Positions 1,310 to 62,741 of a stretch of 64,000 nucleotides of DNA are shown here, piece after piece. The stretch comes from a virus. The stretch is from positions 72,745-136,744 of IMG/VR virus record IMGVR_UViG_3300024983_000001; one strand, given 5' to 3'. Under the pieces are notes generated by a model that did not search any database, had not been told where the DNA came from, and worked only from the letters and a program-made list of their open reading frames with translations. The first letter of the stretch is position 1; every line of letters begins with the position of its first letter. The position numbers and the translations under genes were made by a program.

Positions 1310-2281
1310 TTAATCTTCGATATAAACGTGATCGATGTGGTGTAGAACAAACAACAACATAATACTCGATACCAACATCAACAGAGGATTGAACAGCCAA
1401 CACACAAACGGAATAGAAAGATAATAGCTCCTCATACCAAGACTATAATAAGCGCCACCCCTATTAAGAACTCGTGACACATAATCACTGTCGATATACG
1501 GCGATTTACAGTTGACCAAATAACCTACGTGGTTGAACATTCGTACGGACAAAGTGAACATAAAGAAGGCGGTAAATAACGTGAACAACAACGGCCCAAC
1601 CTTGAAAGCATGTAACGCTGAATGTTGAGACGAAACTGCAATTGCATCTGATACTGTGCCAAAGTGTGAAATGTTCAACACTCCAATTATCAACAAGATT
1701 GCTGTAGATGCTAAAAATGTCGCAGCCATTGTTGAATTTCGTAGTGTTTGCACTGCCAACACCTCAAAGTTATCGTGTGACATAATGGACCGAACCCACG
1801 CGGAACGGGCTTGAGTGGTAATAGTTTGGAAAGTTGAATATGATGGGTCTTTACGAGTTCGGACATAAACCACTATATGATATCCAGCTAACAAAACAAT
1901 ACTAATGGAAAATAAAATTAGGTTACGATAGTGTCCCCACACTACATCAATAACTGTTTTCTGATGCCGCTCAAACGTAATGACGGGTGGGGGCTGATTT
2001 TTACTTTTCATTAGAGTTTGAGCATATTCGCTGCCATTTTTAGCAGCAAGGCCAATCCATTTATCCGCCATCACAGCGTCGGGTTTGAGACCATATTCAC
2101 CACTTTGATATGCCAAACCAAGCATTAACTGTCCTTTTCGATCGCCACTATCCGCAAGATTTTGCAAAACTGCCAGGTCAGATTTGTTAATATCAGCTTG
2201 ATTTCTAGGTTCGAAAATATAAGCGGCTGTAATTACAGCAATCATTACAGCAATGAATGATAGAGTTTTAAGATGTTTCAT
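1310..2281 (-). CDS. Sel1-repeat / DUF599 membrane protein fusion
   Basis: GQLMLGLAYQSGEYG..AAKNG Sel1-like repeat; LAVQTLRNSTMAATFLASTA and GMRSYYLSIP DUF599-type motifs; several TM helices. Confidence 0.7.
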   Translation of the reverse strand: MKHLKTLSFIAVMIAVITAAYIFEPRNQADINKSDLAVLQNLADSGDRKGQLMLGLAYQSGEYGLKPDAVMADKWIGLAAKNGSEYAQTLMKSKNQPPPVITFERHQKTVIDVVWGHYRNLILFSISIVLLAGYHIVVYVRTRKDPSYSTFQTITTQARSAWVRSIMSHDNFEVLAVQTLRNSTMAATFLASTAILLIIGVLNISHFGTVSDAIAVSSQHSALHAFKVGPLLFTLFTAFFMFTLSVRMFNHVGYLVNCKSPYIDSDYVSRVLNRGGAYYSLGMRSYYLSIPFVCWLFNPLLMLVSSIMLLFVLHHIDHVYIED

Positions 2282-3301: not shown

Positions 3302-3535
3302 TCACCACGCAACAGCATATGCCGTCCACGACCCATCAGCATTTTGTTCAGTTTCCCAACCCACTCGACGATTGCCACAATCACAACGCCTATCATCACC
3401 ATCCCATCCTTGACAGTCATTGCCACCGTCCCAAACATCAGCACAGTTCCAACCAGAAAATTCAATGTATACTTCTTCTGCACATGCTTGCATACCAGCA
3501 GCAATTGCCTCTTCTTCAGTTAAACCATGATACAT
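3302..3535 (-). CDS. Hypothetical acidic Cys/Trp-rich protein
   Basis: AAGGA SD; CQGWDGDDRRCDCGNRRV. Confidence 0.7.
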   Translation of the reverse strand: MYHGLTEEEAIAAGMQACAEEVYIEFSGWNCADVWDGGNDCQGWDGDDRRCDCGNRRVGWETEQNADGSWTAYAVAW

Positions 3536-3546
3536 GTTAACATCCT

Positions 3547-3729
3547 TTATAAATAAACATCAGACACAGATTCACTTATAACTTCATCATCTAACAGCAC
3601 CTTTACGGTTGTTTCGATACGCTGTGTATCAAAATAAAGGTCTGCAGACCCGCGCATCACGCTGTTAATCTCAATTTTCAGGTTGTTGCGAAGATATTCT
3701 ATTACCTCGATAGCTTCAGAACTCAACAT
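3547..3729 (-). CDS. Hypothetical protein
   Basis: GAGGA SD. Confidence 0.6.
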   Translation of the reverse strand: MLSSEAIEVIEYLRNNLKIEINSVMRGSADLYFDTQRIETTVKVLLDDEVISESVSDVYL

Positions 3730-3790
3730 AACTAATTCCTCACATTTGATTTATGAAATCAATTATACCCACATTCACACTCATAGGCAA

Positions 3791-3818
3791 CAAAAAACCA
3801 CCCGAAGGTGGTTTTTTG
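3791..3818. terminator. Intrinsic terminator after nampt
   Basis: AAAAAACCACC-CGAA-GGTGGTTTTTT. Confidence 0.85.
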
Positions 3819-3831
3819 ATGGTTTAGTTAA

Positions 3832-5205
3832 TTACATAGTGCTGTTTGCTCGCACTTCATCGAACGTATATTCCCTAACAATTTTTCCATTAACGAATAC
3901 AGTTTCAAGTGCATCAACCACTCCAGGTGTTTCAATGTCAGAAAAATACCCACCATCTTCACTCTTATACAGAGTAACACGCCCCTTCTTCGACCGCTTG
4001 CCAACATCGGTAACAGGATCCTTATACACATCAACCCAGTTTCCATCAATGCACGCTGCAGACGTTTTCATCGCAAATTTCAAAGTGTCGCGGTTTACCT
4101 GTTGAAGCAGTGCTCCACCCATACCAAAAGCAACGTTGTCAGCACTATATCCAGCAAACTTCAATGTACGAAGAATCGATTTAATGCTACCCTCATTGAT
4201 TCCATCGCCCTGAATAACACGTACTACCGGATTAAGAACTTTATATCCCTTCTCATTCACTGTTGATCCAAATGCAGCATCAAGTGCTCGGACAACCTCA
4301 CACACGACCGAAGCAGGATCACCACTATCGGGGCGAATAACAACAGTAGCACCACTATCAAGCACTTCTTGTTTCAGTTCTTTACCCCACAGATTTGTGA
4401 CGGCATTGAGAATGTCGTACGAATCACTAACAGCCGCAAACATCTTGCCTTTGCCACCAAACTGTTTAATCATGTTGCGGTAAGCATCAACCTCGTTTTT
4501 ACGACCCCACGACGTGTAGGAGCTGTGTTCACCAGCCGGAATCGAGTAACCAGGCATACCAATTGCATTGTAATATTTCTGTGCAAAACGAATACCCGAT
4601 ACAGTGTCCGACCCCATAAAGTTGACCAAGTGGGCAGCGCCGCCAATACCAGCACTTTCAAAGGAACTAACGCCACGGGCGCCAAAATCATGCAGTTTGA
4701 ACGACAGACCTGCAGGATCACCAGTCTCTTCTAATGCTGCACGAATCACTTGCTTGATGCTCCAACTATTGGTAGCAACAGTCGTACCATACCATACAGC
4801 ACGAAGAATTGCAGGCTCGATATACGACGTCAGCCAGAAACATTTGTCGTCAGTGTTTTCAACGGTAACAAGTACGTTTTTTGTACCGAGGACCATACCT
4901 TCAGGAACGGCACGGACAACAAGAGGTAGATAACCAGCGTATTTGTCCACAATATACTGCCATCCGGCTCGGTTAAACGGTTCACCGTGAGCAGCGAAGA
5001 ATTCATCAGCTTCTTCAATCATCTCTTGAGTGACGGGCTTTGTCAGATATTCCTTTAAGAAAATTTGAAGACCGAACATAACGGTTTTGTCATATTCGCC
5101 GCCTCGAGACTCAATGTAAGAGAACACTTTGGTGGTATTGGGTGGATATTGAAGAAAGTGTGATGCTTTGTATGAATCAGTATTAAGAATAATGTTTGTT
5201 TCCAT
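3832..5205 (-). CDS. nadV: Nicotinamide phosphoribosyltransferase (Nampt)
   Basis: TDSYKASH, LHDFGARG, PAGEHS, IRPDSGDP, IQGDG, AFGMGG, RDTLKFAMK motifs. Confidence 0.95.
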   Translation of the reverse strand: METNIILNTDSYKASHFLQYPPNTTKVFSYIESRGGEYDKTVMFGLQIFLKEYLTKPVTQEMIEEADEFFAAHGEPFNRAGWQYIVDKYAGYLPLVVRAVPEGMVLGTKNVLVTVENTDDKCFWLTSYIEPAILRAVWYGTTVATNSWSIKQVIRAALEETGDPAGLSFKLHDFGARGVSSFESAGIGGAAHLVNFMGSDTVSGIRFAQKYYNAIGMPGYSIPAGEHSSYTSWGRKNEVDAYRNMIKQFGGKGKMFAAVSDSYDILNAVTNLWGKELKQEVLDSGATVVIRPDSGDPASVVCEVVRALDAAFGSTVNEKGYKVLNPVVRVIQGDGINEGSIKSILRTLKFAGYSADNVAFGMGGALLQQVNRDTLKFAMKTSAACIDGNWVDVYKDPVTDVGKRSKKGRVTLYKSEDGGYFSDIETPGVVDALETVFVNGKIVREYTFDEVRANSTM

Positions 5206-5252
5206 GATAAAACTCCTTTATCAAAAATTATACAAACCGTCTATCAGTTTGT
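5205..5252 (-). promoter_or_regulatory. Twin-hairpin leader motif copy 1 (nadV)
   Basis: ACAAACU-GAUAGAC-GGUUUGU then UGAUAAA-GGAGU-UUUAUCA(UG). Confidence 0.8.
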
Positions 5253-5267
5253 TTGGTACTACAAAAA

Positions 5268-5513
5268 TTAACGAGAACGGTCCACCGGACTCGCTTGTTT
5301 AATTGTTGCTGTGATTCCACTGAACGTCGGATCGCCAGGGCCACGATCATACATATCGTACGAACGCATTGTTGCGTTAAATTTGATGTCAATATCAGAC
5401 AGGCTTACGTCGATATTATATTTGTCGCGAAGTAAATTGAAGACAGCTTCTTGGACGAGCTTGTGTGCATCAGCCTCCGAGAAATCAAACGTCATCTTGG
5501 TATTAATATTCAT
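5268..5513 (-). CDS. Hypothetical protein (twin-hairpin leader)
   Basis: AAGGAG SD, ORF track. Confidence 0.75.
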   Translation of the reverse strand: MNINTKMTFDFSEADAHKLVQEAVFNLLRDKYNIDVSLSDIDIKFNATMRSYDMYDRGPGDPTFSGITATIKQASPVDRSR

Positions 5514-5560
5514 GTTAAGCTCCTTAACAAGTTATGAAGGTGAAGGGTCTGTCCCTTCAC
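5513..5560 (-). promoter_or_regulatory. Twin-hairpin leader motif copy 2
   Basis: GUGAAGG-GACAGAC-CCUUCAC then UGUUAA-GGAGC-UUAACA(UG). Confidence 0.8.
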
Positions 5561-5608
5561 ATGTTATTTAATATTATAACTAATAAAATATATAAGTCAA
5601 CACTTATT

Positions 5609-5767
5609 TTAAGCGTAAGTATCAATTCGACCTTTTGGTACTGGTTTCTTTTTCACATCAGGATCATTTTCCGTCTTAACAATTCGTTTAACTGGCTGAA
5701 CCTTTGTTGTTGACGATTTGTCTAACAACTTTGTGATGGGTGAAACAAATATTTCTCTTAACAACAT
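5609..5767 (-). CDS. Small late protein
   Basis: MLLREIF start with AAGGA SD and upstream TAAATA. Confidence 0.6.
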   Translation of the reverse strand: MLLREIFVSPITKLLDKSSTTKVQPVKRIVKTENDPDVKKKPVPKGRIDTYA

Positions 5768-5811
5768 ATAATTCCTTTGTGATTGTGTATCTTTATATTT
5801 ACACAAATAGA

Positions 5812-6165
5812 TCAAAGTTCACTTAACTGACGGTCAATATCAGCGATTTGTTCGAGCAAATCTCGTTTTTGCTTTTCAAGTTTGGTACGTTCCCAAACTT
5901 CATCAGGCTTCGAAATTTTAATCAGTTCAAAATCTCCGCCTGCCCCCCATTGCCAAAAACGTTCCATTTCTACGGCCATATCGATAATGTCGCCTAGACG
6001 ACCTTCAAAATAGCCAAGTGATGGTTGATAGTGCGGTCCGTGAAGATCACAATTGGGATCTTCCCCCTTAACATGCCACAATCCATAGTCATCAAGATCA
6101 TATTTTTGCAGCAACTGCCGATAATTCCACGAAACAATATATTTGTCTTTTGCTTTTGAGTCCAT
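5812..6165 (-). CDS. Hypothetical protein (twin-hairpin leader)
   Basis: GGAGG SD; GEDPNCDLHGPH motif; C-terminal coiled coil. Confidence 0.75.
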   Translation of the reverse strand: MDSKAKDKYIVSWNYRQLLQKYDLDDYGLWHVKGEDPNCDLHGPHYQPSLGYFEGRLGDIIDMAVEMERFWQWGAGGDFELIKISKPDEVWERTKLEKQKRDLLEQIADIDRQLSEL

Positions 6166-6214
6166 AAGGAAATCCTCCTAATGATTTGAATGATTAACGT
6201 CTATCGTTAATCAT
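6165..6214 (-). promoter_or_regulatory. Twin-hairpin leader motif copy 3
   Basis: AUGAUUAAC-GAUAGAC-GUUAAUCAU then UUAGGA-GGAUU-UCCUUA(UG). Confidence 0.78.
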
Positions 6215-6239
6215 AATAATACACTAATACTTATTTATG

Positions 6240-6764
6240 TCAACTATTTTTGAAACTTCCTATTAACATTTGTGTTTTAACAACACCTGGGGACACTTCC
6301 CTCGTGTAGTGGAATCCGTCTGGATCCAATTCCAATATTTTTTGGCCGAGGATTCGTTCTGCTTGAGTGTTAGGTATTGGTTTGCCACCTAAATTCAACA
6401 TTACCTTTTCCAAATTGCCGCTAAACTCACCCCACGATTTGTTTCCTGTGATATCATCCGAAAGAATGGCCTTCAACGCATTTTTTCCATCTCTCGTATC
6501 GTTATGAAAAACTAATCGAACTTTATGCCCACTACTATTACGATAGATTACTCCAGCAACGATTTTACCATCAATAAACGACGCCTTCCATACTCCAGGT
6601 GTATTGATTAAATTGTCTAAATTTGCACCACTTAATCCCATTCCCGAACCATATTTGTCGTATGTATTTTGCAATAACTGCCATACATAACTGGCATAAC
6701 GCTTTCGTTGGGTAGGTGTTACAAGATTTACAAAGTTCTCACACAGAATTTCGTATATTTTCAT
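6240..6764 (-). CDS. Late hypothetical protein, putative head-packaged
   Basis: MKIYEILCE N-terminus; ATAAATA upstream. Confidence 0.7.
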   Translation of the reverse strand: MKIYEILCENFVNLVTPTQRKRYASYVWQLLQNTYDKYGSGMGLSGANLDNLINTPGVWKASFIDGKIVAGVIYRNSSGHKVRLVFHNDTRDGKNALKAILSDDITGNKSWGEFSGNLEKVMLNLGGKPIPNTQAERILGQKILELDPDGFHYTREVSPGVVKTQMLIGSFKNS

Positions 6765-6799
6765 GTGGCATTTACCTAATATTGATTTAATATCAATAT

Positions 6800-7006
6800 T
6801 TATGACATCATGTCTGTCAAATCTCGTCCGTTTAAATAAGTAATCAAAAAATCGTGAAGATTGTATGTGACACCATCATACCCAAGGATAATATCAGGTG
6901 GTATGACTGATTCAACGACCACCATACCAGTGTTTAACATCCAAAATGCAGGGTCTCTAGGTGCAAGTTTGATTATATCTCCCGCATTAATAATAACTTC
7001 ATACAT
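6800..7006 (-). CDS. Hypothetical protein
   Basis: Start overlaps upstream stop. Confidence 0.55.
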   Translation of the reverse strand: MYEVIINAGDIIKLAPRDPAFWMLNTGMVVVESVIPPDIILGYDGVTYNLHDFLITYLNGRDLTDMMS

Positions 7007-7559
7007 TTTTATAAACTAAATCATTCATGATGTGATGTACAGTGTCCACATTTTTTCCGTATACATTATCAACTTCGAAGAAAGGTACGCCTGTATCAAT
7101 CAATAATGCTCTCAAATCCTTATCAATTTGAATAGCCTCATTCTCATCTTGATTTCTACCAACCGTTTCATACGGAACCCCCCGTCGAATAAGAACGTTG
7201 ATGTTGTTGTATGAATTGTATGTGTCCATTACATAATCAAAAAATGATGGGGGGAAATCCTCTGGCATATACATAAACCCCAACAACAACGAAGTGTCAG
7301 CAACAATATAATCTACTTGACCCACCAAACGTCTAAACCTGTTATTTTGTTTACTGAAAATATAATCTTGTTCCGTCAACATATGATGACGACCTTCAAA
7401 GGTATAATCTTTTGCAACTTCGGGTACATACTCAACCTTCCCTTTTTGGGCTAGCGACATATAGTAAGCGAGACCAAGTGCAGTAGTGGATTTACCAACG
7501 CCGGGTCCACCCAACATATTGATTATAGTAACGTCTTTGTTATTCGAATATGGTAACAT
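6999..7559 (-). CDS. NadR/Ttd14-like P-loop kinase (AAA_28 type)
   Basis: GGPGVGKST Walker A, VPEVAKD, IVADTSLL, GRNQ. Confidence 0.75.
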   Translation of the reverse strand: MLPYSNNKDVTIINMLGGPGVGKSTTALGLAYYMSLAQKGKVEYVPEVAKDYTFEGRHHMLTEQDYIFSKQNNRFRRLVGQVDYIVADTSLLLGFMYMPEDFPPSFFDYVMDTYNSYNNINVLIRRGVPYETVGRNQDENEAIQIDKDLRALLIDTGVPFFEVDNVYGKNVDTVHHIMNDLVYKNV

Positions 7560-7570
7560 TTCATCTTCCT

Positions 7571-7780
7571 TTATAAGTTGTGCATTTGCTTGTCGTAATA
7601 ATATCGCGCAAAATCACAAATCTCCGCTGCTTGTTGTTTTGTACATATGATAACACGTGTACACGGATCGGTAATTAGTTGTTGATCCATCAACCATTTA
7701 ATCATTCCGGAATTAGGATCCGCACATATACCAATATGCACAGAGTCCAAATCGTTTAGTTCGGTGGGGATGTTGTTCAT
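7571..7780 (-). CDS. Hypothetical protein
   Basis: ATGA overlap with upstream gene. Confidence 0.6.
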   Translation of the reverse strand: MNNIPTELNDLDSVHIGICADPNSGMIKWLMDQQLITDPCTRVIICTKQQAAEICDFARYYYDKQMHNL

Positions 7781-8192
7781 GGCATCATTGGCGAAGGTAC
7801 TTCACCTCTCGTAACGCACGGCAAGTTGGAAACATCGGGATTTACACTTGTAAACACTTCTTCCCCGTCTTTGGCTGCAAACAATGCGGTATTGTTATCA
7901 AGACTGTATATGGTCCAGCCACCTGAAACCATTTGCCAACCAGTCAGTTTATCTTCGGGTCCAACATCAGGAAATTTAACCAACAAAACATATTTGTCTC
8001 CAGATGATGGATTGTGAATACCCCAGCATGCTTTTTCAGAGCGTGCGTAATAATCTAGTGCTGCTTTTGCATACACCAATCCCGTACTAAAAGAATCATC
8101 CTTTGATGCGCCCTGTGACGACGTATCTTCCTTTTTGCGCAACCCAACAACATTAACGTCATTAGTGCAGAAACTATCATATGTTTTTTCAC
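7777..8192 (-). pseudogene. Lipoprotein, frameshifted at A5 run (8132-8136)
   Basis: GAGGAG SD + GTG 8192 gives MKKHMIVSALMTLMLLGC lipobox; one extra A joins it to ORF 7777..8142. Confidence 0.7.
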
Positions 8193-8206
8193 AACAAACT
8201 CCTCAA

Positions 8207-8617
8207 TTAGTGATTAATAACATAACAGCGCGACAACAAAGCCATGATAACTTTGTTGTTATAATCTCCACAACGACCATTAACTAATTCGGTTGGGGTA
8301 ACCCATTGAACGTTAATATCTCGTTCCATTTGAGAGGCTGCTTCCGATTCGACGGTATGAACGTATCTAAATGTTGTTACGTGATAGCCTCCATCATCAA
8401 CACCTTCATACAACTGAATCAATTGTCCACGTTGTGTAACCAATCCAGTTTCTTCCTGTAATTCTCGTATTGCTGCATCAATAGGTTTTTCGTTGTCTTC
8501 AAGTTTTCCACCGGGAAGACCAAAAACATTGTATTCACCCCTAACAGATGCGGCAAGAATCTTACCTTCTCTGTTAAAGACTACTACACATGCAGCATTA
8601 CGAGTTTCACCATTCAT
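8207..8617 (-). CDS. Nudix hydrolase
   Basis: PGGKLEDNEKPIDAAIRELQEETGL Nudix box. Confidence 0.9.
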   Translation of the reverse strand: MNGETRNAACVVVFNREGKILAASVRGEYNVFGLPGGKLEDNEKPIDAAIRELQEETGLVTQRGQLIQLYEGVDDGGYHVTTFRYVHTVESEAASQMERDINVQWVTPTELVNGRCGDYNNKVIMALLSRCYVINH

Positions 8618-9645
8618 TAAATTTGCCCAAGAAAATATTGAATTATGTGATAATGATCCTCAAAACATTTCGATTCGTCAAGCTCATTTAATGGAATCCA
8701 CTTTGCTTTTTCAGCATCATCATTACCTTTAACTTTTGGAAGGTCACCGGCCGGTAGCTCAATGAGGTACGCATGTGTGATTGTGCGCCCACGAAGAGAC
8801 CTGTTGGGTGTATCAAACACATGAGATGTTTTGACACTACCACGGAGAACTGCCTCCGGTACTTTAATTTTAGTTTCCTCGCGAAGTTCACGAATTGCCG
8901 CGTCAAGCAGCCGTTCGTTTTGATTAACAAATCCACCCGGCAATGCACCAAGTCCACGACCTGGGGCGGCTCGACGTTTAATCATCAGTACATGTCCGGA
9001 CTGAACAACAACAGCATCAACAGTAACAAAAGTTGGAGCATACGGTGCCCTATCCCATGAGTTTTTGTAGGCTTGAATATAAAAATATTCTTCCACGAGT
9101 ACATAAAATCCTGGCGTTTTCATCCAATCAACGATATAGCTCTCGACAGCTTTTGAAACGGTTGGGTACACATGTTGTTTAACAGCAAACATTTCTTCGC
9201 GAATTTGTGTGGCATTTATACCTTGAAAATTAGGTACTTCAACAACACTCCATTGTGGAAACAGCTTTAGATAAAAGCTACTTTCGTCTTTACTGTGACC
9301 AATAATACCTATTTTGTGAGGGTTGGGTACGGCTATATAATCATCTTCTGCAATAACACTATCAATAGTGTTTTGAATATCACGAACCCACTTTTGGTCA
9401 TTGTATGGTTTATCTTTAGCCGCGACAACAACATAATTGGTATGTGAGGACCCCATCGCAGCAAGAATCATTTGCTTGCGCTCGACAAAATTCCATGGGT
9501 TTTTAATGGTTCGTGGTTGGTTAGTAGAACCAACCACGACAATGACTTTTTCGGCCATTTCACACGCCTGTTTGAGCACTGCTTCGTGACCATTGTGAAA
9601 CGGTGAAAAACGACCGATATAAATTAGATAATTAAACTTTTTCAT
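8617..9645 (-). CDS. nadM: Bifunctional NMN adenylyltransferase / ADP-ribose pyrophosphatase (NadM-Nudix)
   Basis: GRFSPFHNGH, KNPW, NATQIRE, then PGGFVNQNERLLDAAIRELREET and RSLRGRTIT. Confidence 0.93.
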   Translation of the reverse strand: MKKFNYLIYIGRFSPFHNGHEAVLKQACEMAEKVIVVVGSTNQPRTIKNPWNFVERKQMILAAMGSSHTNYVVVAAKDKPYNDQKWVRDIQNTIDSVIAEDDYIAVPNPHKIGIIGHSKDESSFYLKLFPQWSVVEVPNFQGINATQIREEMFAVKQHVYPTVSKAVESYIVDWMKTPGFYVLVEEYFYIQAYKNSWDRAPYAPTFVTVDAVVVQSGHVLMIKRRAAPGRGLGALPGGFVNQNERLLDAAIRELREETKIKVPEAVLRGSVKTSHVFDTPNRSLRGRTITHAYLIELPAGDLPKVKGNDDAEKAKWIPLNELDESKCFEDHYHIIQYFLGQI

Positions 9646-9693
9646 AATAGAGCTCCTCTATCAAAATTGTAATACGAAGTCTATCTTCGTATT
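9645..9693 (-). promoter_or_regulatory. Twin-hairpin leader motif copy 4 (nadM-nudix)
   Basis: AAUACGAA-GAUAGAC-UUCGUAUU then UGAUAGA-GGAGC-UCUAUUA(UG). Confidence 0.8.
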
Positions 9694-9718
9694 TTATTAC
9701 TACAAATATTACATCATA

Positions 9719-9747
9719 ATTATATTACACTAAACCATTAATGTCAA
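9719..9747 (-). promoter_or_regulatory. sigma70 promoter of nadM operon
   Basis: TTGACA-17 bp-TATAAT perfect consensus. Confidence 0.85.
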
Positions 9748-9749
9748 CT

Positions 9750-10136
9750 TCAGTGTTCAAGCCACTGCCAGTCTGTTGTGTTATGAAAATTACCATCAAA
9801 ACAATGTTTAACTTCGTGACCAAGCGTCATCATACTTTCGGGTGTGTCGTCAGAATATACATAACACACATTATCTTTCCACCCATAACACCCCAAGGCT
9901 CCTGGAATGGGAAAGATAAAACCAATAACTCTTGAACACACAACTGGAATATCATCCTCTTTAACACGAATCCACCGTATTATGACGGGTGCATTTTTAT
10001 CCATTTGTTCTGGTGTTTGTTTACTACCTCTTATAATAAGGTACTTGGAATCAAAAGAGTCGCAGTCACCTTTACCTGCAAAGATGACTGCGACTATGAT
10101 GAATACTGTTAGTAATGTTACTTTTACATAATCCAT
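9750..10136 (-). CDS. Exported protein with HExxH metallopeptidase motif
   Basis: N-terminal hydrophobic segment; TLGHEVKHCF. Confidence 0.6.
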   Translation of the reverse strand: MDYVKVTLLTVFIIVAVIFAGKGDCDSFDSKYLIIRGSKQTPEQMDKNAPVIIRWIRVKEDDIPVVCSRVIGFIFPIPGALGCYGWKDNVCYVYSDDTPESMMTLGHEVKHCFDGNFHNTTDWQWLEH

Positions 10137-10189
10137 GTTGTTCTCCCCACCCCAAATACGTATTTAGGGTAAGGGAGAATGATTATGGA

Positions 10190-10750
10190 TTATCGTAGTT
10201 TTACAGGACTCGACTCTTTACCAGTTTTGAATGCGTTGTCGGCATAATCGTTGGTAATAGCCTTGTACTTTTCGAGGTCGATACGGGGATATCCAGCAAA
10301 ACGCATCCACATACCCTTCCACACATAACCAAGATTGGTGCTATATGCACGTTTGGCATCAATCAAGCGAGTTTGAGACATTTTAAATTCATCACGACCA
10401 GCTTCAACAATTTGTTGAATTTTGCGATAAAGTTGCGCATCAACAGTAGGGTTCTGTTCTTTCAGCCACTGAAACGTTGCCTTGCTGCCATCAGCACCAT
10501 AACGACCACTCAATGCTGCTGTGACCACTTCCTTCAAGTCATCTTTCATCATAGTGGGGACTTGGGCTGCTTCTTGCACCTTTTGGGTGTATTGAGCAAG
10601 GATGTTCTGGTTGTTTTCCCAAATTGCCTTGATCTCATTTTCTGCGGTGTTACCGTAATTGGCACTGCTAATATATGACGCAACTGCTATAAATATAATT
10701 GAGACGATTACACCAACAATCGACATAGTTGTTACGGTTTTTGAATTCAT
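10190..10750 (-). CDS. Membrane-anchored helical protein (LemA-like)
   Basis: Single N-terminal TM, helical body, IEAGR-type motif. Confidence 0.6.
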   Translation of the reverse strand: MNSKTVTTMSIVGVIVSIIFIAVASYISSANYGNTAENEIKAIWENNQNILAQYTQKVQEAAQVPTMMKDDLKEVVTAALSGRYGADGSKATFQWLKEQNPTVDAQLYRKIQQIVEAGRDEFKMSQTRLIDAKRAYSTNLGYVWKGMWMRFAGYPRIDLEKYKAITNDYADNAFKTGKESSPVKLR

Positions 10751-49446: not shown

Positions 49447-49523
<77 letters not shown>

Positions 49524-59170: not shown

Positions 59171-59247
59171 TGCGGGATGGAGCAGTGGTCAGCTCGCCGG
59201 TCTCATAAGCCGGAGGTCGTTGGTTCGAATCCAACTCCACGCAACCA
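59171..59247 (+). tRNA. tRNA-Met(CAT), initiator-like
   Basis: TGCGGGATGGAGCAG.., CTCATAA loop, CCA; one acceptor bulge. Confidence 0.8.
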
Positions 59248-59499
59248 AGAATTAGTTGGGTAGACGTACCCAAGAAGTAAACGCCAACCATCTTGGGAAC
59301 TAGGTGGTGATCGCAGGGAATCCAGCGTGCGAAAGGTGGCGGGGTAAAAGTCCTCACGAATAGTTCCCCGATATTGAAAAACATTCAATGCGACGTAGGC
59401 TGACAAGCGTCCCCCTGGTCGGATAAGGGTGAGAGTGGTGAAGGTAAGTGGTTAATCTTGCCTTCATACGATTTTTTGTAACCAGTTTTGAAAAATTGG

Positions 59500-59528
59500 T
59501 TGACTTTTATAAATAAGTCATATATAAT
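59500..59528 (+). promoter_or_regulatory. Dual sigma70 + late promoter of tRNA array
   Basis: TTGACT-17 bp-TATAAT with TATAAATA at 59508-59515. Confidence 0.85.
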
Positions 59529-59578
59529 TAATGTAACAATTGAGCAATGTGCTCGAAACCATTTAAGGAATGAATGAA

Positions 59579-59635
59579 ATGTTCACACTGAAGTCAAAAA
59601 GTTATTGTTCCAAACTCTTAGGGGGCTTATCCTAA
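59579..59635 (+). CDS. Attenuator leader peptide MFTLKSKSYCSKLLGGLS
   Basis: AAGGA SD 59565-59569; stop codon overlaps antiterminator strand. Confidence 0.8.
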   Translation: MFTLKSKSYCSKLLGGLS

Positions 59636-59703
59636 CGAGGCGACTTCGTTTGTTCATCCGAAACAGATTACTTCGCCCCGTTAGAAATAGCGGGGCTTTT
59701 TTT
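59618..59703 (+). terminator. Attenuator: 1:2, 2:3 (antiterminator), 3:4 (terminator)
   Basis: TTAGGG/TCCTAA; CTAACGAGGCGA/TCGCCCCGTTAG; GCCCCGTTA-GAAA-TAGCGGGGC-T7. Confidence 0.85.
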
Positions 59704-59715
59704 GTATGTAGTACT

Positions 59716-59731
59716 TGATCTTTTACAATTT
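59716..59731 (+). promoter_or_regulatory. rrn-type boxA-like antitermination site
   Basis: TGATCTTTTACAATTT versus TGCTCTTTAACAATTT. Confidence 0.6.
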
Positions 59732-59741
59732 GAAAATTTAT

Positions 59742-59815
59742 GCGGGTATGATGTAATGGTAGCCTGAAACCTTGCCGAGGTTTATGCCCCAGTTCGATTC
59801 TGGGTACCCGCTCCA
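59742..59815 (+). tRNA. tRNA-Gly(GCC)
   Basis: AAACC-TTGCCGA-GGTTT, TCCA end. Confidence 0.9.
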
Positions 59816-59832
59816 AAGAAGTTCTTTTTGGA

Positions 59833-59908
59833 GACCGTGTGACGAGAATGGTATTCGCCTGGATTGCAAACCCAGAATTCGTCAGTTCGATTCTGACCTC
59901 GGTCTCCA
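59833..59908 (+). tRNA. tRNA-Cys(GCA)
   Basis: TTGCAAA loop, U73, CCA. Confidence 0.85.
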
Positions 59909-59922
59909 AAGTGAATTTAAGG

Positions 59923-59995
59923 GCGTGCGTAGCTCAATTGGTAGAGCGTCTGGCTTCCAACCAGAATGTTGCAGGTTCGATTCCTGTCGCCCGCA
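59923..59995 (+). tRNA. tRNA-Gly(TCC)
   Basis: TCTGG-CTTCCAA-CCAGA; no encoded CCA. Confidence 0.85.
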
Positions 59996-60038
59996 CACAA
60001 TAGTAGAGTTGTCATAAATAGATATAGGAGGAACTATT

Positions 60039-60752
60039 ATGTTCTATTACATCTATCAAATCACCAACTTGGTGAATGGCAAAATCTACGTAGGAGTGCA
60101 CAAAACCGGCAATTTAGATGATGGTTATATGGGCTCTGGAAAAGTTATCAAACGAGCCATAAAGAAATATGGCATTGATAATTTTACAAAAGACGTGCTC
60201 GAATTTTTCGAGAGTGAAGAATTGATGTACGCAAAAGAGAAAGAAGTAGTAACTGAAAACTTTCTTGAGAGAGATGAAGTCTATAATTTACGCAGAGGTG
60301 GTTTGGGAGGATTTGACCATATTAATAAAAATTATGAAGAATTATGTATTCAAAATAGTAGAGCTAGAAAAAACACTGACAAAAAGTTGGAACAAAAATT
60401 AGGTAAGGATTGGAGGTCTGTAATAGGTAAGAAAGCTTCTGAAGCCGCACAACATCCATCCAGTAAAGCAAAACGACGCAAAACATTACTTGATAGAGGA
60501 ATACGGTCTGACGCTAGCTATATGCACACAGCAGAGGTTAATGAAAAAAGGAAACTTGCCTATAAACAAAACGGTCACTCGATCGGTGAAAAAAACTCAC
60601 AATTTGGTACTTGTGTGATAAGTTATCCATCGCTGGGTATAAAAAGAAAACGAATTAAAAAACATCTATTGTGTGAATATATCGATCAAGGTTGGATGTT
60701 AGGTGCCAAGAAGAAAGTATTTGAAATGTTTTATTTGGATGCTCCCCCGTAA
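60039..60752 (+). mobile_element. GIY-YIG homing endonuclease (Seg-like)
   Basis: YYIYQITNLVNGKIYVGVH..YMGSG..YNLRRGG; own ATAAATA promoter and AGGAGG SD. Confidence 0.9.
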
Positions 60753-60822
60753 TGGTATGGGCCCCGGCTGTAACCCGGTGAGCGGCTAGACCGAGTAGGT
60801 TCGATTCCTACAGCATCCACCA
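60737..60822 (+). tRNA. tRNA-Tyr(GTA)
   Basis: CCGG-CTGTAAC-CCGG, long variable arm, ACCA. Confidence 0.8.
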
Positions 60823-60839
60823 GTATTAAAATTTACATT

Positions 60840-60926
60840 GGGTCCATACGCTGCTAAGGACGCAGCCCGGTCTGTAAAACCGTAGCCTTTGTGCGTGGCA
60901 GGGATCGTTACCTGGACGGCGCACCA
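60840..60926 (+). tRNA. Atypical/pseudo tRNA-Tyr(GTA)
   Basis: CGGT-CTGTAAA-ACCG and ACCA, but weak acceptor stem and ATCGTTA T-loop. Confidence 0.5.
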
Positions 60927-60935
60927 GATTATTAT

Positions 60936-61064
60936 CACTGTGCTAGTTTAAAAGGCTAGAACACCTAACCAATAACACTTGTGACGTCCAGGTGTTGAGG
61001 TTCGGCGGGTCGCTCCCGTTTGTACAAAAGGAGGTGTGGGGTCGGTACCCACGCATGGTGTCCA
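60936..61064 (+). ncRNA. tRNA-like RNA with expanded anticodon domain
   Basis: 8-bp acceptor CACTGTGC/GCATGGTG, D- and T-arms, TCCA. Confidence 0.65.
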
Positions 61065-61074
61065 AATTAGTAAT

Positions 61075-61171
61075 GGAGATTGATCCCCCCGTCAGGCGCG
61101 TAACCTGATGTCTCTAAATAAGTCTGGGGGCGAATTAAGACGAGGTGGTTAAACTCCCCCAGTCTCCACCA
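61075..61171 (+). ncRNA. tRNA-like RNA (no canonical D-arm, CGT-loop hairpin)
   Basis: GGAGATTG/CAGTCTCC-ACCA; TCAGG-CGCGTAA-CCTGA. Confidence 0.55.
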
Positions 61172-61172
61172 T

Positions 61173-61247
61173 GTACCGCAAGCATTAATGGTGATGCAAT
61201 AGGCTCTTACCCTTTAGAACACGGATCGTTACCGTGGCGGTGCACCA
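61173..61247 (+). tRNA. tRNA-Lys(CTT)
   Basis: CTCTTAC loop, atypical ATCGTTA T-loop, ACCA. Confidence 0.75.
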
Positions 61248-61259
61248 ACGAATAATTTT

Positions 61260-61336
61260 GGGAGCGATGTCGACTGGGTAGACATCCGGCTTTTAACCGG
61301 AACACAGAGTGGGTTCGATTCCCTCCGCTCCCACCA
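61260..61336 (+). tRNA. tRNA-Lys(TTT)
   Basis: TCCGG-CTTTTAA-CCGGA, ACCA. Confidence 0.85.
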
Positions 61337-61420
61337 AAATTGAAATAGGTATGATCCGCGATACATGCGAAGGGACCCGGCTTGAAAGAGTACAGGTAAA
61401 ACTACAGCGGAAAAATATAT

Positions 61421-61505
61421 GCGTGAGTGGTGGAATGGTATACACGTTGGTCTAAGAAGCCAATGCCCTCGTGGATTGAGAGTTCGAGTCTCTCCTTACG
61501 CACCA
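61421..61505 (+). tRNA. tRNA-Leu(AAG)
   Basis: TTGGT-CTAAGAA-GCCAA, long variable arm, ACCA. Confidence 0.88.
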
Positions 61506-61508
61506 AAT

Positions 61509-61643
61509 ATCGAAGTGATGGGGAATTGGTATACCCTGGTGGTGGAATCATAGTGGGGAGCCCTGGGGAGCCAGGTAAGCGAAAGCGGTAACCCTTCCAA
61601 CAAACCGCAGCTTGTGTGGGTTCGAATCCCACCTTCGGTACCA
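61509..61643 (+). ncRNA. tRNA-like RNA with expanded anticodon domain
   Basis: ATCGAAG/CTTCGGT-ACCA, D-arm GGG-AATTGGTATA-CCC, GTGGGTTCGAATCCCAC. Confidence 0.7.
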
Positions 61644-61683
61644 GATAAGGAGGGCTCGAGTCCATGTCTCCTCCGCAAGTTAT

Positions 61684-61773
61684 GGAAGACGGGCAGGATG
61701 GTAATGCAGCGGATTGCTAATCCGTAGGCCCATTTACGTGGGTCACAGGGTTCGATTCCCTGGTCTTCCGCCA
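61684..61773 (+). tRNA. tRNA-Ser(GCT)
   Basis: GCGGA-TTGCTAA-TCCGT, long arm, GCCA. Confidence 0.9.
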
Positions 61774-61776
61774 TAT

Positions 61777-61874
61777 TTGACTGTGTTGTAATGGTAGCAA
61801 GGGGAAGTCCGAGGCGTGATGAGCGAAGTAGGCAACCAAATGCCCCCGAGGTGGTTCAATTCCACCCAGTCGAA
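61777..61874 (+). ncRNA. tRNA-like RNA with enlarged anticodon loop
   Basis: TTGACTG/CAGTCGA, D-arm, GGGG..CCCC, GGTGGTTCAATTCCACC. Confidence 0.6.
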
Positions 61875-61886
61875 TGAATAAGTTAT

Positions 61887-61965
61887 GCCCCTGTAGGCCA
61901 ATTAGGTAGAGTCGGTGGATTTAAAATCCATTTATGTGTCGGTTCGAATCCGACCAGGGGTACCA
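61887..61965 (+). tRNA. tRNA-Leu(TAA), short variable arm
   Basis: GTGGA-TTTAAAA-TCCAT, ACCA. Confidence 0.85.
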
Positions 61966-62096
61966 TATTAAAACACATCACCCTACCCAACGGGTGATAG
62001 ACAGTGGTTGGAAGGATCTATCCGTGTATTGGATTGCCGATGGAAGCTCCCGGGTTGCACCGGTGCCAAAGGACCCAATCGTGGTGTGTTTTAATA
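61966..62096 (+). ncRNA. Unknown structured RNA
   Basis: 16-bp closing stem TATTAAAACACATCAC/GTGGTGTGTTTTAATA. Confidence 0.6.
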
Positions 62097-62097
62097 T

Positions 62098-62193
62098 GGA
62101 GATGTTAGCCGAGTTGGCCTAGCGGCGGCTGTCTTGAAAACAGAGGGCCTGGTGTCCCCAGGTGTGTGAGTTCGAGTCTCACCTTCTCCGCCA
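62098..62193 (+). tRNA. tRNA-Ser(TGA)
   Basis: CTGT-CTTGAAA-ACAG, long arm, GCCA. Confidence 0.88.
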
Positions 62194-62305
62194 TATTTTT
62201 GTAGTCCATCCCAGGTGATGGGTAAATGGTGTTGCGAGCAGGTAATGCTGCTGATAAAGATCGAAGCGCAACTTAATAGGATTGTGTTCCACCTACTACA
62301 GCAAT

Positions 62306-62385
62306 GCCCGGGTACGCAATTTTGGTAAAGCGGCCTTCCTCAAAAGTAGGTGATTTTGTCAGTTCGACTCTGATCCCGGGTACCA
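62306..62385 (+). tRNA. tRNA-Leu(CAA), short variable arm
   Basis: CCTTC-CTCAAAA-GTAGG, ACCA. Confidence 0.75.
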
Positions 62386-62453
62386 AACAACATGCTGTGT
62401 ATCAGTCATAAGATGATGCGTAGTGCCACCGGGCAACCCCGTGGGTGGTGATT

Positions 62454-62530
62454 GCCCCCGTAGGCCAATTGGTAGAGTCACATGCCTTAGGAGCATGTCA
62501 GTGTCAGTTCGAATCTGACCGGGGGTACCA
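62454..62530 (+). tRNA. tRNA-Leu(TAG), short variable arm
   Basis: CATGC-CTTAGGA-GCATG, ACCA. Confidence 0.85.
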
Positions 62531-62542
62531 GATATTAGCAAC

Positions 62543-62619
62543 GCCCAGGTAGCGCAATCGGTAGAGGCAATAGATTCAAAACCTATTTAGTGTGGGTTCG
62601 AATCCCACCCTGGGCACCA
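62543..62619 (+). tRNA. tRNA-Leu(CAA), short variable arm
   Basis: ATAGA-TTCAAAA-CCTAT, ACCA. Confidence 0.8.
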
Positions 62620-62625
62620 AACAAC

Positions 62626-62741
62626 GCAAGCGTGGTGGAATGGTATACACTCTGGTCTTGTGCAGAGTATCTGCTAAAGCGGGTACTCGACAGAAGCCAG
62701 CGCCGTGAGGATTGAGAGTTCGAGTCTCTCCGCTTGCACCA
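62626..62741 (+). tRNA. tRNA-Leu (CAG or TAG) with 32-nt anticodon-loop insertion
   Basis: Body nearly identical to Leu(AAG) at 61421; hairpin insert 62659-62690. Confidence 0.8.

Follow-up and report, generated by a model that had tools for sequence, protein, structure and literature searches.

A covarying two-hairpin RNA leader in front of phage NAD-salvage genes and its possible role as a translational operator

What do four similar two-hairpin leaders do in front of the nicotinamide adenine dinucleotide (NAD) salvage genes of a phage? The question was raised by a 64,000-nucleotide (nt) stretch of viral DNA (the window; positions 72,745 to 136,744 of IMG/VR record IMGVR_UViG_3300024983_000001), for which a preliminary description had reported a leader upstream of nadV, of genes encoding an 81-residue and a 117-residue protein, and of nadM-Nudix. 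NadV and NadM-Nudix constitute a phage NAD-rebuilding pathway that counters NAD-depleting bacterial immunity. All four copies were found where they had been described, on the minus strand, as listed here with window coordinates and with bit scores of the covariance model R1 that is introduced below.

5203 to 5254, minus strand: leader copy 1, upstream of nadV, within an operon (57.2 bits)
5252 to 5232, minus strand: hairpin 1 of copy 1, 7-bp stem, loop GAUAGAC at 5245 to 5239
5223 to 5205, minus strand: hairpin 2 of copy 1, loop GGAGU at 5216 to 5212, A of the AUG (5205 to 5203) paired
5511 to 5562, minus strand: leader copy 2, upstream of the 81-residue protein gene (48.2 bits)
5560 to 5540, minus strand: hairpin 1 of copy 2, 7-bp stem, loop GACAGAC at 5553 to 5547
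5528 to 5514, minus strand: hairpin 2 of copy 2, loop GGAGC at 5523 to 5519, followed by the AUG at 5513 to 5511
6163 to 6216, minus strand: leader copy 3, upstream of the 117-residue protein gene (41.5 bits)
6214 to 6190, minus strand: hairpin 1 of copy 3, 9-bp stem, loop GAUAGAC at 6205 to 6199
6179 to 6167, minus strand: hairpin 2 of copy 3, loop GGAUU at 6175 to 6171, with outer pairs between CAU (6183 to 6181) and the AUG (6165 to 6163)
9643 to 9695, minus strand: leader copy 4, upstream of nadM-Nudix (51.3 bits)
9693 to 9671, minus strand: hairpin 1 of copy 4, 8-bp stem, loop GAUAGAC at 9685 to 9679
9662 to 9646, minus strand: hairpin 2 of copy 4, loop GGAGC at 9656 to 9652, followed by the AUG at 9645 to 9643

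As had been described, the hairpin-1 stems are perfect (7, 7, 9 and 8 bp in copies 1 to 4) and unrelated in sequence beneath a loop that reads GAUAGAC or, in copy 2, GACAGAC; the end of loop 1 lies 22 to 23 nt from the start of loop 2, and the pentaloop of hairpin 2 (GGAGU, GGAGC, GGAUU and GGAGC, respectively) is the Shine-Dalgarno (SD) sequence. The pairing of the start codon, also part of that description, was seen in copies 1 and 3, in which the A or the whole of the AUG is paired, and did not extend to copies 2 and 4. A linker of 8 to 11 nt joins the two hairpins, the 3' arm of hairpin 2 abuts the AUG, and in each of the four copies the hairpins lie on the coding strand, ∼45 nt upstream of the start codon. 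ViennaRNA folded every copy into these two hairpins, with minimum free energies of -11.7 to -17.3 kcal/mol and z scores of -2.6 to -5.6 (copy 4, -5.6); in these folds the G and C of the loop heptamer pair with each other, leaving an AUAGA or ACAGA pentaloop. A pseudoknot between loop 1 and the 3' arm of hairpin 2 could be drawn for copies 1 and 4, not for copies 2 and 3, and was rejected as a general feature. Copies 1 and 4 also have in common the string UUUGUAGUA, ∼10 nt upstream of hairpin 1 (5261-5269 and 9700-9708, minus strand), and AUUUUGAUA.AGGAG in the linker and hairpin 2, though their hairpin-1 stems are unrelated; a relative (L314, a contig of Logan SRR15070235) carries UUUGUAUUA where these two copies have their common upstream string.

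The frequency expected by chance was assessed in the whole 257,054-bp IMG/VR record, a genome estimated to be 78% complete. Both strands together contain 65 GANAGAC words, and a flanking stem of at least 7 bp is present only in these four, against ∼0.07 expected by chance (0.375^7 per site). Model R1 recovered the same four copies genome-wide (E values of 1e-8 to 3e-5) and nothing else below E = 0.6. Hairpins that present an SD sequence in the loop beside an AUG were found at ∼6% of the other starts in this genome.

Megablast detected no close relative of the region among GenBank phages, in which the best NadV match was 60% identical, and we therefore gathered IMG/VR loci through NadV (79 loci, 41-67% identity). 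A simple scan of these loci returned 39 stemmed GANAGAC hairpins among 481 occurrences of the word, nearly all of them ∼45 nt ahead of nadV or of a gene whose product starts M.K.YD..V.IGRFQ, i.e., nadM. Thirty-four leader sequences were assembled into alignment A1, on which model R1 was based; they were picked for a hairpin-1 stem, and hairpin 2 played no part in the selection. Across the helices of A1, 94% of the cells are paired, both-sided changes occur in 12 of the 13 pairs, and hairpin 2 is 94.4% paired although it was not a selection criterion. The covariation score of 0.997 compares with 0.215 in shuffled alignments (reached in 0 of 500) and with 0.09-0.16 when the partners were slid. 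When R1 was applied to the NadV-retrieved loci it gave 69 matches in 1.23 Mb, all of them sense to the downstream gene, and another 101 matches came from loci retrieved by a pattern scan that took no account of genes. The functional, covarying RNA structure that had been proposed is thus borne out, with both helices 94% paired and covariation far above that of the shuffled controls, and the leader is almost certainly a real cis-regulatory RNA structure.

Because G-U pairs are frequent in the helices and all 69 matches are sense, the structure forms in RNA and not in DNA. This distinction matters for comparison with NrtR, a Nudix-related transcription factor that controls nadV and nadM in bacteria (PMC2330246); NrtR operators resemble the leader in having the same target genes and a Nudix-type sensor, which for the leader is only proposed. 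The DNA palindrome bound by NrtR is conserved in its arms, whereas the leader has free arms, a conserved center, strand specificity and G-U pairs, features that argue for its working as RNA rather than as an NrtR-like DNA operator.

The leader is far more general than the four copies of the window. Hairpin 1 consists of a 6-11 bp stem of any sequence that carries an AUAGA pentaloop closed by G-C, the linker measures 3-24 nt (mostly 6-12 nt), and in 93 leaders the 3' arm of hairpin 2 ends between -3 and +5 nt from the AUG. The window copies show the features that define the R1 family, namely a G-AUAGA-C apex, a linker of 6-12 nt, an SD-pentaloop hairpin ending at the AUG, and sense orientation. 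Leaders were found across cyanophage, roseophage and other phage lineages, and the full scan of five other large phage records returned one or two matches in each, at or beside NAD genes where this was checked. Two carriers are cultured: Synechococcus phage B23, with leaders before the NMNAT gene gp46 and the NAMPT gene gp49, and Ruegeria phage RpAliso (grown on R. pomeroyi DSS-3), with two leaders, one of which ends at the NAMPT start. R1 gave no match in the phages Xanthomonas RTH11, Myxococcus Mx1, Mesorhizobium Cp1R7A-A1, Rhizobium B1VFA and Acidovorax ACP17, and the KVP40 genome contains no leader of the AUAGA type (class I below) anywhere, its natV being preceded only by a promoter and a short SD hairpin that resembles hairpin 2. 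When the exact pattern was searched in 185,579 bacterial species genomes, only 5 real leaders were present among the 80 of 110 matching stretches that were listed, in 4 contigs of metagenome-assembled genomes and all before nadV or nadM; the class I leader is therefore essentially phage-borne.

Which genes carry the leader was assessed from 141 non-redundant R1 matches in phage contigs, a covariance-model search that the preliminary description had suggested. The context is not random: 68 matches precede nadV and 57 precede nadM-Nudix (125 together), and the rest comprise 4 before the 117-residue protein family, 4 before a 106-residue family, 1 before nadA and a few singletons. In the gene-blind pattern scan of IMG/VR, 58 of 83 matches stand before nadV or nadM; a further 23 lack a stem and are chance matches. 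The genes of the window that are concerned, with two neighbors, are as follows.

3832 to 5205, minus strand: nadV, nicotinamide phosphoribosyltransferase, 457 residues (Pfam NAPRTase 1.4e-60, NAMPT_N 4.9e-31)
5268 to 5513, minus strand: 81-residue protein, first gene of the nadV operon, with leader copy 2 upstream
5812 to 6165, minus strand: 117-residue protein (phrog_33851)
6999 to 7559, minus strand: AAA_28 (NadR-kinase-like) protein (Pfam)
8207 to 8617, minus strand: small Nudix protein (Pfam)
8617 to 9645, minus strand: nadM-Nudix, bifunctional nicotinamide mononucleotide (NMN) adenylyltransferase/ADP-ribose pyrophosphatase, 342 residues (Pfam CTP_transf_like and NUDIX)

NadM-Nudix matched the structure of the Synechocystis enzyme (PDB 2QJO) over its full length (E value of 1.8e-98). 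The claim that the leader defines a regulon holds for nadV, nadM and the 117-residue family; homologues of the 81-residue protein are confined to near relatives. The 117-residue family (25 homologues) is a real third target, since its genes lie in NAD clusters and a leader stands before them in six further lineages (L024, L092, L168, L285, L286 and L290). Its members have the invariant pattern GEDPNCD...G.H..P..G...FW.WG.GG (including H45 and P48) and a long C-terminal helix. The predicted model of the window protein has a pLDDT of 89.7; it gave no PDB fold match at E ≤ 0.001 and no atlas lead of 0.9 or above, and the protein has no significant Pfam match, with a weak precomputed PF19962 match in a few homologues. 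The 81-residue protein matched neither Pfam nor PHROG and has two homologues only (75-78% identical, both in near relatives); its gene is lineage-specific. Relative L314, in which this protein is 78% identical, keeps both leaders: the stem of its nadV leader is wholly different, and that of the other leader shows a compensated A-U to G-C change. The orthologous loop in L314 is GAUAGAC, and the C in the copy 2 loop is thus a recent variant.

Several further observations concern the leader-bearing genes of other phages. The family of ∼106 residues has an N-terminal coiled coil followed by C.WNHTDGCGWYYE and is leader-preceded in several phages (loci L002:5270-5584, L021:6361-6678, L035 and L140:3335-). 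At L009:1098-1151 a leader precedes the gene of a NadA-like quinolinate synthase of 307 residues, and the target set thereby extends to de novo NAD synthesis. Among relatives of the phage, an NAD kinase is encoded beside the nadV cluster in L314 and in L285 (GCA_902730385.1, 343 kb), the former also encoding a NADAR protein and the latter also NadA; these genes point to a phage NAD module larger than NadV plus NadM.

The element is an uncatalogued RNA family, known here by model R1. Scanning of the entire window against Rfam 15 at gathering thresholds (cmscan) detected only tRNAs and one c-di-GMP-I riboswitch, elsewhere in the window, and at E ≤ 10 the region 5100-9800 yielded only four chance-level matches, the best of which reached 25 bits where the gathering score is 60. 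The searchable literature gave no description of the leader, and a published survey of viral NAD systems names no RNA element. NAD+-I (nadA motif) and NAD+-II (pnuC motif) riboswitches likewise precede NAD-biosynthesis genes and occlude the SD sequence. Their architecture differs, the only conserved nucleotides of the leader outside the SD sequence being those of one small loop that varies among clades, and neither covariance model matched even at E ≤ 10, in agreement with the dissimilarity noted in the preliminary description. As to the Rfam features themselves, the c-di-GMP-I aptamer (RF01051, 385-472, minus strand; 57.5 bits, gathering score 35) sits just upstream of an open reading frame that runs off the window start, and there are twelve tRNA genes (49450-49523 and 59172-62738), eleven of which are clustered on the plus strand at 59-63 kb; one of the tRNA genes (62626-62738) has a length of 113 nt, perhaps owing to an insert.

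Since the leader overlaps the SD sequence and the start codon, a translational operator is its natural reading, as had been proposed. Hairpin 2 by itself is weak, with 4-7 mostly A-U pairs, and SD-in-loop hairpins are present at just the few other starts noted above, which makes a trans-acting factor plausible. A dimeric phage-encoded protein would bind both apical loops and lock hairpin 2, thereby hiding the SD sequence and AUG from the 30S subunit and repressing translation. With NadM-Nudix as the reader, nadM, nadV and a few accessory genes would be placed under joint feedback control, and by analogy with enzymes that bind operators, repression might be released when a substrate or product (NAD+, NMN, ATP or ADP-ribose) competes at the nucleotide site of the enzyme. 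The reading as a whole, a translational operator most likely read by NadM-Nudix that exerts feedback on nadM, nadV and accessory genes, is the one that we tentatively adopt, and we give it a little less than an even chance.

Leaders of nadV and nadM that R1 had missed bear on this reading, because they have the same two-hairpin layout with a different hairpin-1 apex. Four classes were distinguished.

Class I: apex G-AUAGA-C and variants such as AAUAGA; most loci, the window included
Class II: apex C-AG(A/U)GA-G; L018, L023, L028, L068 and L072
Class III: apex AGUGGA or AUUGGA; L057-L060 and L065
Class IV: apex A-GGGGU-U; L047

In every genome whose two leaders could both be assigned, they belong to the same class (17 I-I, 5 II-II, 1 IV-IV and 0 mixed). 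The apex of hairpin 2 is also class-specific, AAA-GGAGU-UUU in class I versus YAC-GGAGA-GUR in class II, and loop 1 resembles loop 2 (AGAGA/GGAGA, GGGGU/GGAGU and AUAGA/GGAGA), a likeness that, together with the short and variable linker, fits a pair of similar sites bound by a symmetric dimer. Apices that are clade-specific and matched within a genome are hard to reconcile with a single small-molecule pocket and easier to explain by a co-evolving protein; a set of riboswitch classes, each with a pocket of its own, would be compatible with them.

These classes thereby weaken the alternative put forward in the preliminary description, a small riboswitch. In such a device NAD+, NMN, ADP-ribose, nicotinamide or phosphoribosyl pyrophosphate would be bound by the two-hairpin RNA itself, and hairpin 2 would be stabilized or opened as a result to gate the SD sequence. 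A self-contained device would account for the strict tie to one pathway in phages of unrelated hosts, the SD sequence is built into the structure, no gene for a dedicated RNA-binding protein lies nearby, and the copy before nadA, a gene of the de novo pathway, fits the sensing of an end product. Yet only ∼5-7 nt are conserved outside the SD sequence, all in one apical loop, and these vary by clade (AUAGA, AGWGA, AGUGGA, GGGGU) while the architecture stays constant; the linker ranges over 3-24 nt, no pocket-forming complementarity of loop 1 with loop 2 or with the linker was seen, and no Rfam riboswitch matched. Furthermore, nadV has no leader in genomes that lack NadM, even though the need for NAD sensing should be equal there. 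We regard a small riboswitch as rather unlikely, and the fuller proposal, one or more new, very small riboswitch classes for an NAD-related metabolite that switch on NAD reconstitution under depletion by host NADases, as unlikely. The suggestion in the preliminary description that the phage rebuilds NAD only once host NADase defenses have fired is speculative.

The association with NadM was examined over 70 NadV rows: leader and NadM occurred together in 49 and NadM without a leader in 12, neither was present in 8, and a leader without NadM was found in 0. In all five leader-bearing contigs with no nadM close to nadV, a full nadM-Nudix is present at another place on the contig, ∼38 kb away where measured. 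Within one NadV clade (SH-aLRT 99) the NadM-bearing genomes have a class II nadV leader, which is missing from the NadM-less ones, and two NadM-less records of this clade are estimated to be 100% complete. Together with the apex classes, this co-occurrence leads us to favor a translational operator with a phage protein as its reader over a riboswitch. Among the readers named in the preliminary description, NadM-Nudix is indirectly backed by the co-occurrence (49 versus 0), and the SLOG and small Nudix proteins, which are not conserved partners, find no support. NadM-Nudix may thus be the reader, an identification that we offer with some reserve and that draws on comparisons of sequences.

Several points weigh against this identification. 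The independent pairs number just 4; the leader follows NadM in 2-3 of them and never does the opposite, and with so few pairs a sign test does not reach significance. Because nadM and nadV travel together, every leader-bearing genome seen also encodes NadV, and the published survey of viral NAD systems reports NadV for all phages that have NadM. Genomes in which no full leader was found account for seven distinct NadM proteins, and KVP40 NatV is preceded solely by the element resembling hairpin 2. The leader-associated NadM proteins are set apart neither by an RNA-binding or other extra domain nor by a clear basic patch; position 313 is K or R in 84% of them and in 0 of 7 others, a difference too weak to use. 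Lastly, the common class of the two leaders in a genome could stem from an old duplication within that genome.

The ubiquity of NadV in leader-bearing genomes, and the fact that the nadV mRNA itself carries the leader, may instead indicate that the operator is read by another protein, e.g., NadV as a dimeric phosphoribosyltransferase in analogy to PyrR, a different phage protein, or a host dimer of the CsrA type. Self-control by NadV alone fails to explain why the leader is always missing from the nadV genes of NadM-less genomes, close NadV relatives included, and the small proteins whose genes are leader-preceded are too sporadic to be a general reader. CsrA/RsmA targets resemble the leader in their two loops, an SD loop with GGA, and a spacing (∼22 nt between the leader loops) that a dimer can bridge; in addition, the class III loops AGUGGA and AUUGGA contain GGA. 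The leader differs from such targets in being phage-carried and specific to one pathway. CsrA requires GGA, in both loops, whereas the class I loop AUAGA has none, and hairpin 1 carries AUAGA or ACAGA in all four copies of the window and in 85 of 93 parsed leaders. A host factor also fits poorly with the spread over cyanophages, roseophages and other phages and with classes that depend on the phage. We consider an operator read by some protein other than NadM-Nudix to be doubtful.

Promoters bear on a further explanation, in which the element has no effector and is a fixed device tuning translation or mRNA stability (a 5' protective hairpin followed by one that presents the SD sequence) or a thermosensor. 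The three best sigma-70-type matches in the region 3500-10300 directly precede copies 4, 3 and 2, that of copy 4 being the best of all.

5573 to 5600, minus strand: sigma-70-like promoter TTGACT-16-TATAAT before copy 2 (11 of 12 consensus matches)
6216 to 6243, minus strand: sigma-70-like promoter TTGACA-16-TATTAT before copy 3 (11 of 12 consensus matches)
9719 to 9747, minus strand: sigma-70-like promoter TTGACA-17-TATAAT before copy 4 (12 of 12 consensus matches)

As the -10 element before copy 3 ends at 6216, this transcript probably starts inside the 5' arm of hairpin 1. No promoter match was detected in front of copy 1, which starts 13 nt past the stop codon of the 81-residue protein gene (5270-5268); copy 1 therefore acts inside an operon. 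In favor of such a device, three transcripts are predicted to begin at or close to hairpin 1, and SD-in-loop hairpins beside the AUG are also found at ∼6% of the other starts in this genome. A fixed device leaves unexplained, however, the invariant loop beneath which the stems vary completely, the restriction to NAD genes, and the copy inside the operon, and we judge it quite improbable. Hairpin 1 plus a U-tract was considered as a terminator; it was flagged for copy 1 and rejected, since in phages of higher GC content the linker is not U-rich. Two further features lie near the NAD cluster: downstream of it, a 323-residue protein with a DUF599 domain (1310-2281, minus strand; E value of 1.1e-51), and upstream of the nadM promoter, a terminator-like hairpin with a perfect 17-bp stem (10058-10095, minus strand), in or at the end of the open reading frame 9750-10136.

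An operator read by the product of one of the genes it controls has parallels among known systems. The operators of E. coli thrS and of T4/RB69 gene 43, bound by ThrRS and by the DNA polymerase, respectively, are short 5' hairpins at the SD sequence or AUG in which a loop sequence is read above a stem of free sequence, and their reader is the product of the regulated gene, as the candidate reader is here. ThrRS, a dimer, recognizes two hairpins of the thrS operator. These operators each serve one gene and the leader serves several genes of one pathway; the leader loop, moreover, shows no mimicry of an anticodon loop and has no U33-like position. The PyrR sites of the Bacillus pyr operon (RF00515) likewise recur as leader hairpins of conserved apical sequence that control a pathway of nucleotide metabolism, and PyrR is a protein of the pathway's own enzyme fold that responds to pathway metabolites. 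PyrR differs in acting by transcription attenuation and in its consensus, with no Rfam match for the leader; a U-rich tract follows hairpin 1 in the window and is not general. Cassettes of a promoter and stem-loop of the PeSL type and lambda boxB were rejected on gene specificity, the position of the leader at the SD sequence and the loop sequence.

The leader probably sets the amount of enzyme made. It marks the 117-residue and 106-residue families as probable NAD-linked functions. If NadM-Nudix is the reader, the system would provide a new example in which a metabolic enzyme represses the translation of a small regulon, and if the RNA itself binds a metabolite, it would be a new riboswitch class; the cultured carriers RpAliso and B23 make the question testable now. 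A dedicated and widely conserved RNA element on both genes implies that the NAD-rebuilding pathway is regulated and not merely expressed early, and it offers a direct handle on the signal that these phages monitor.

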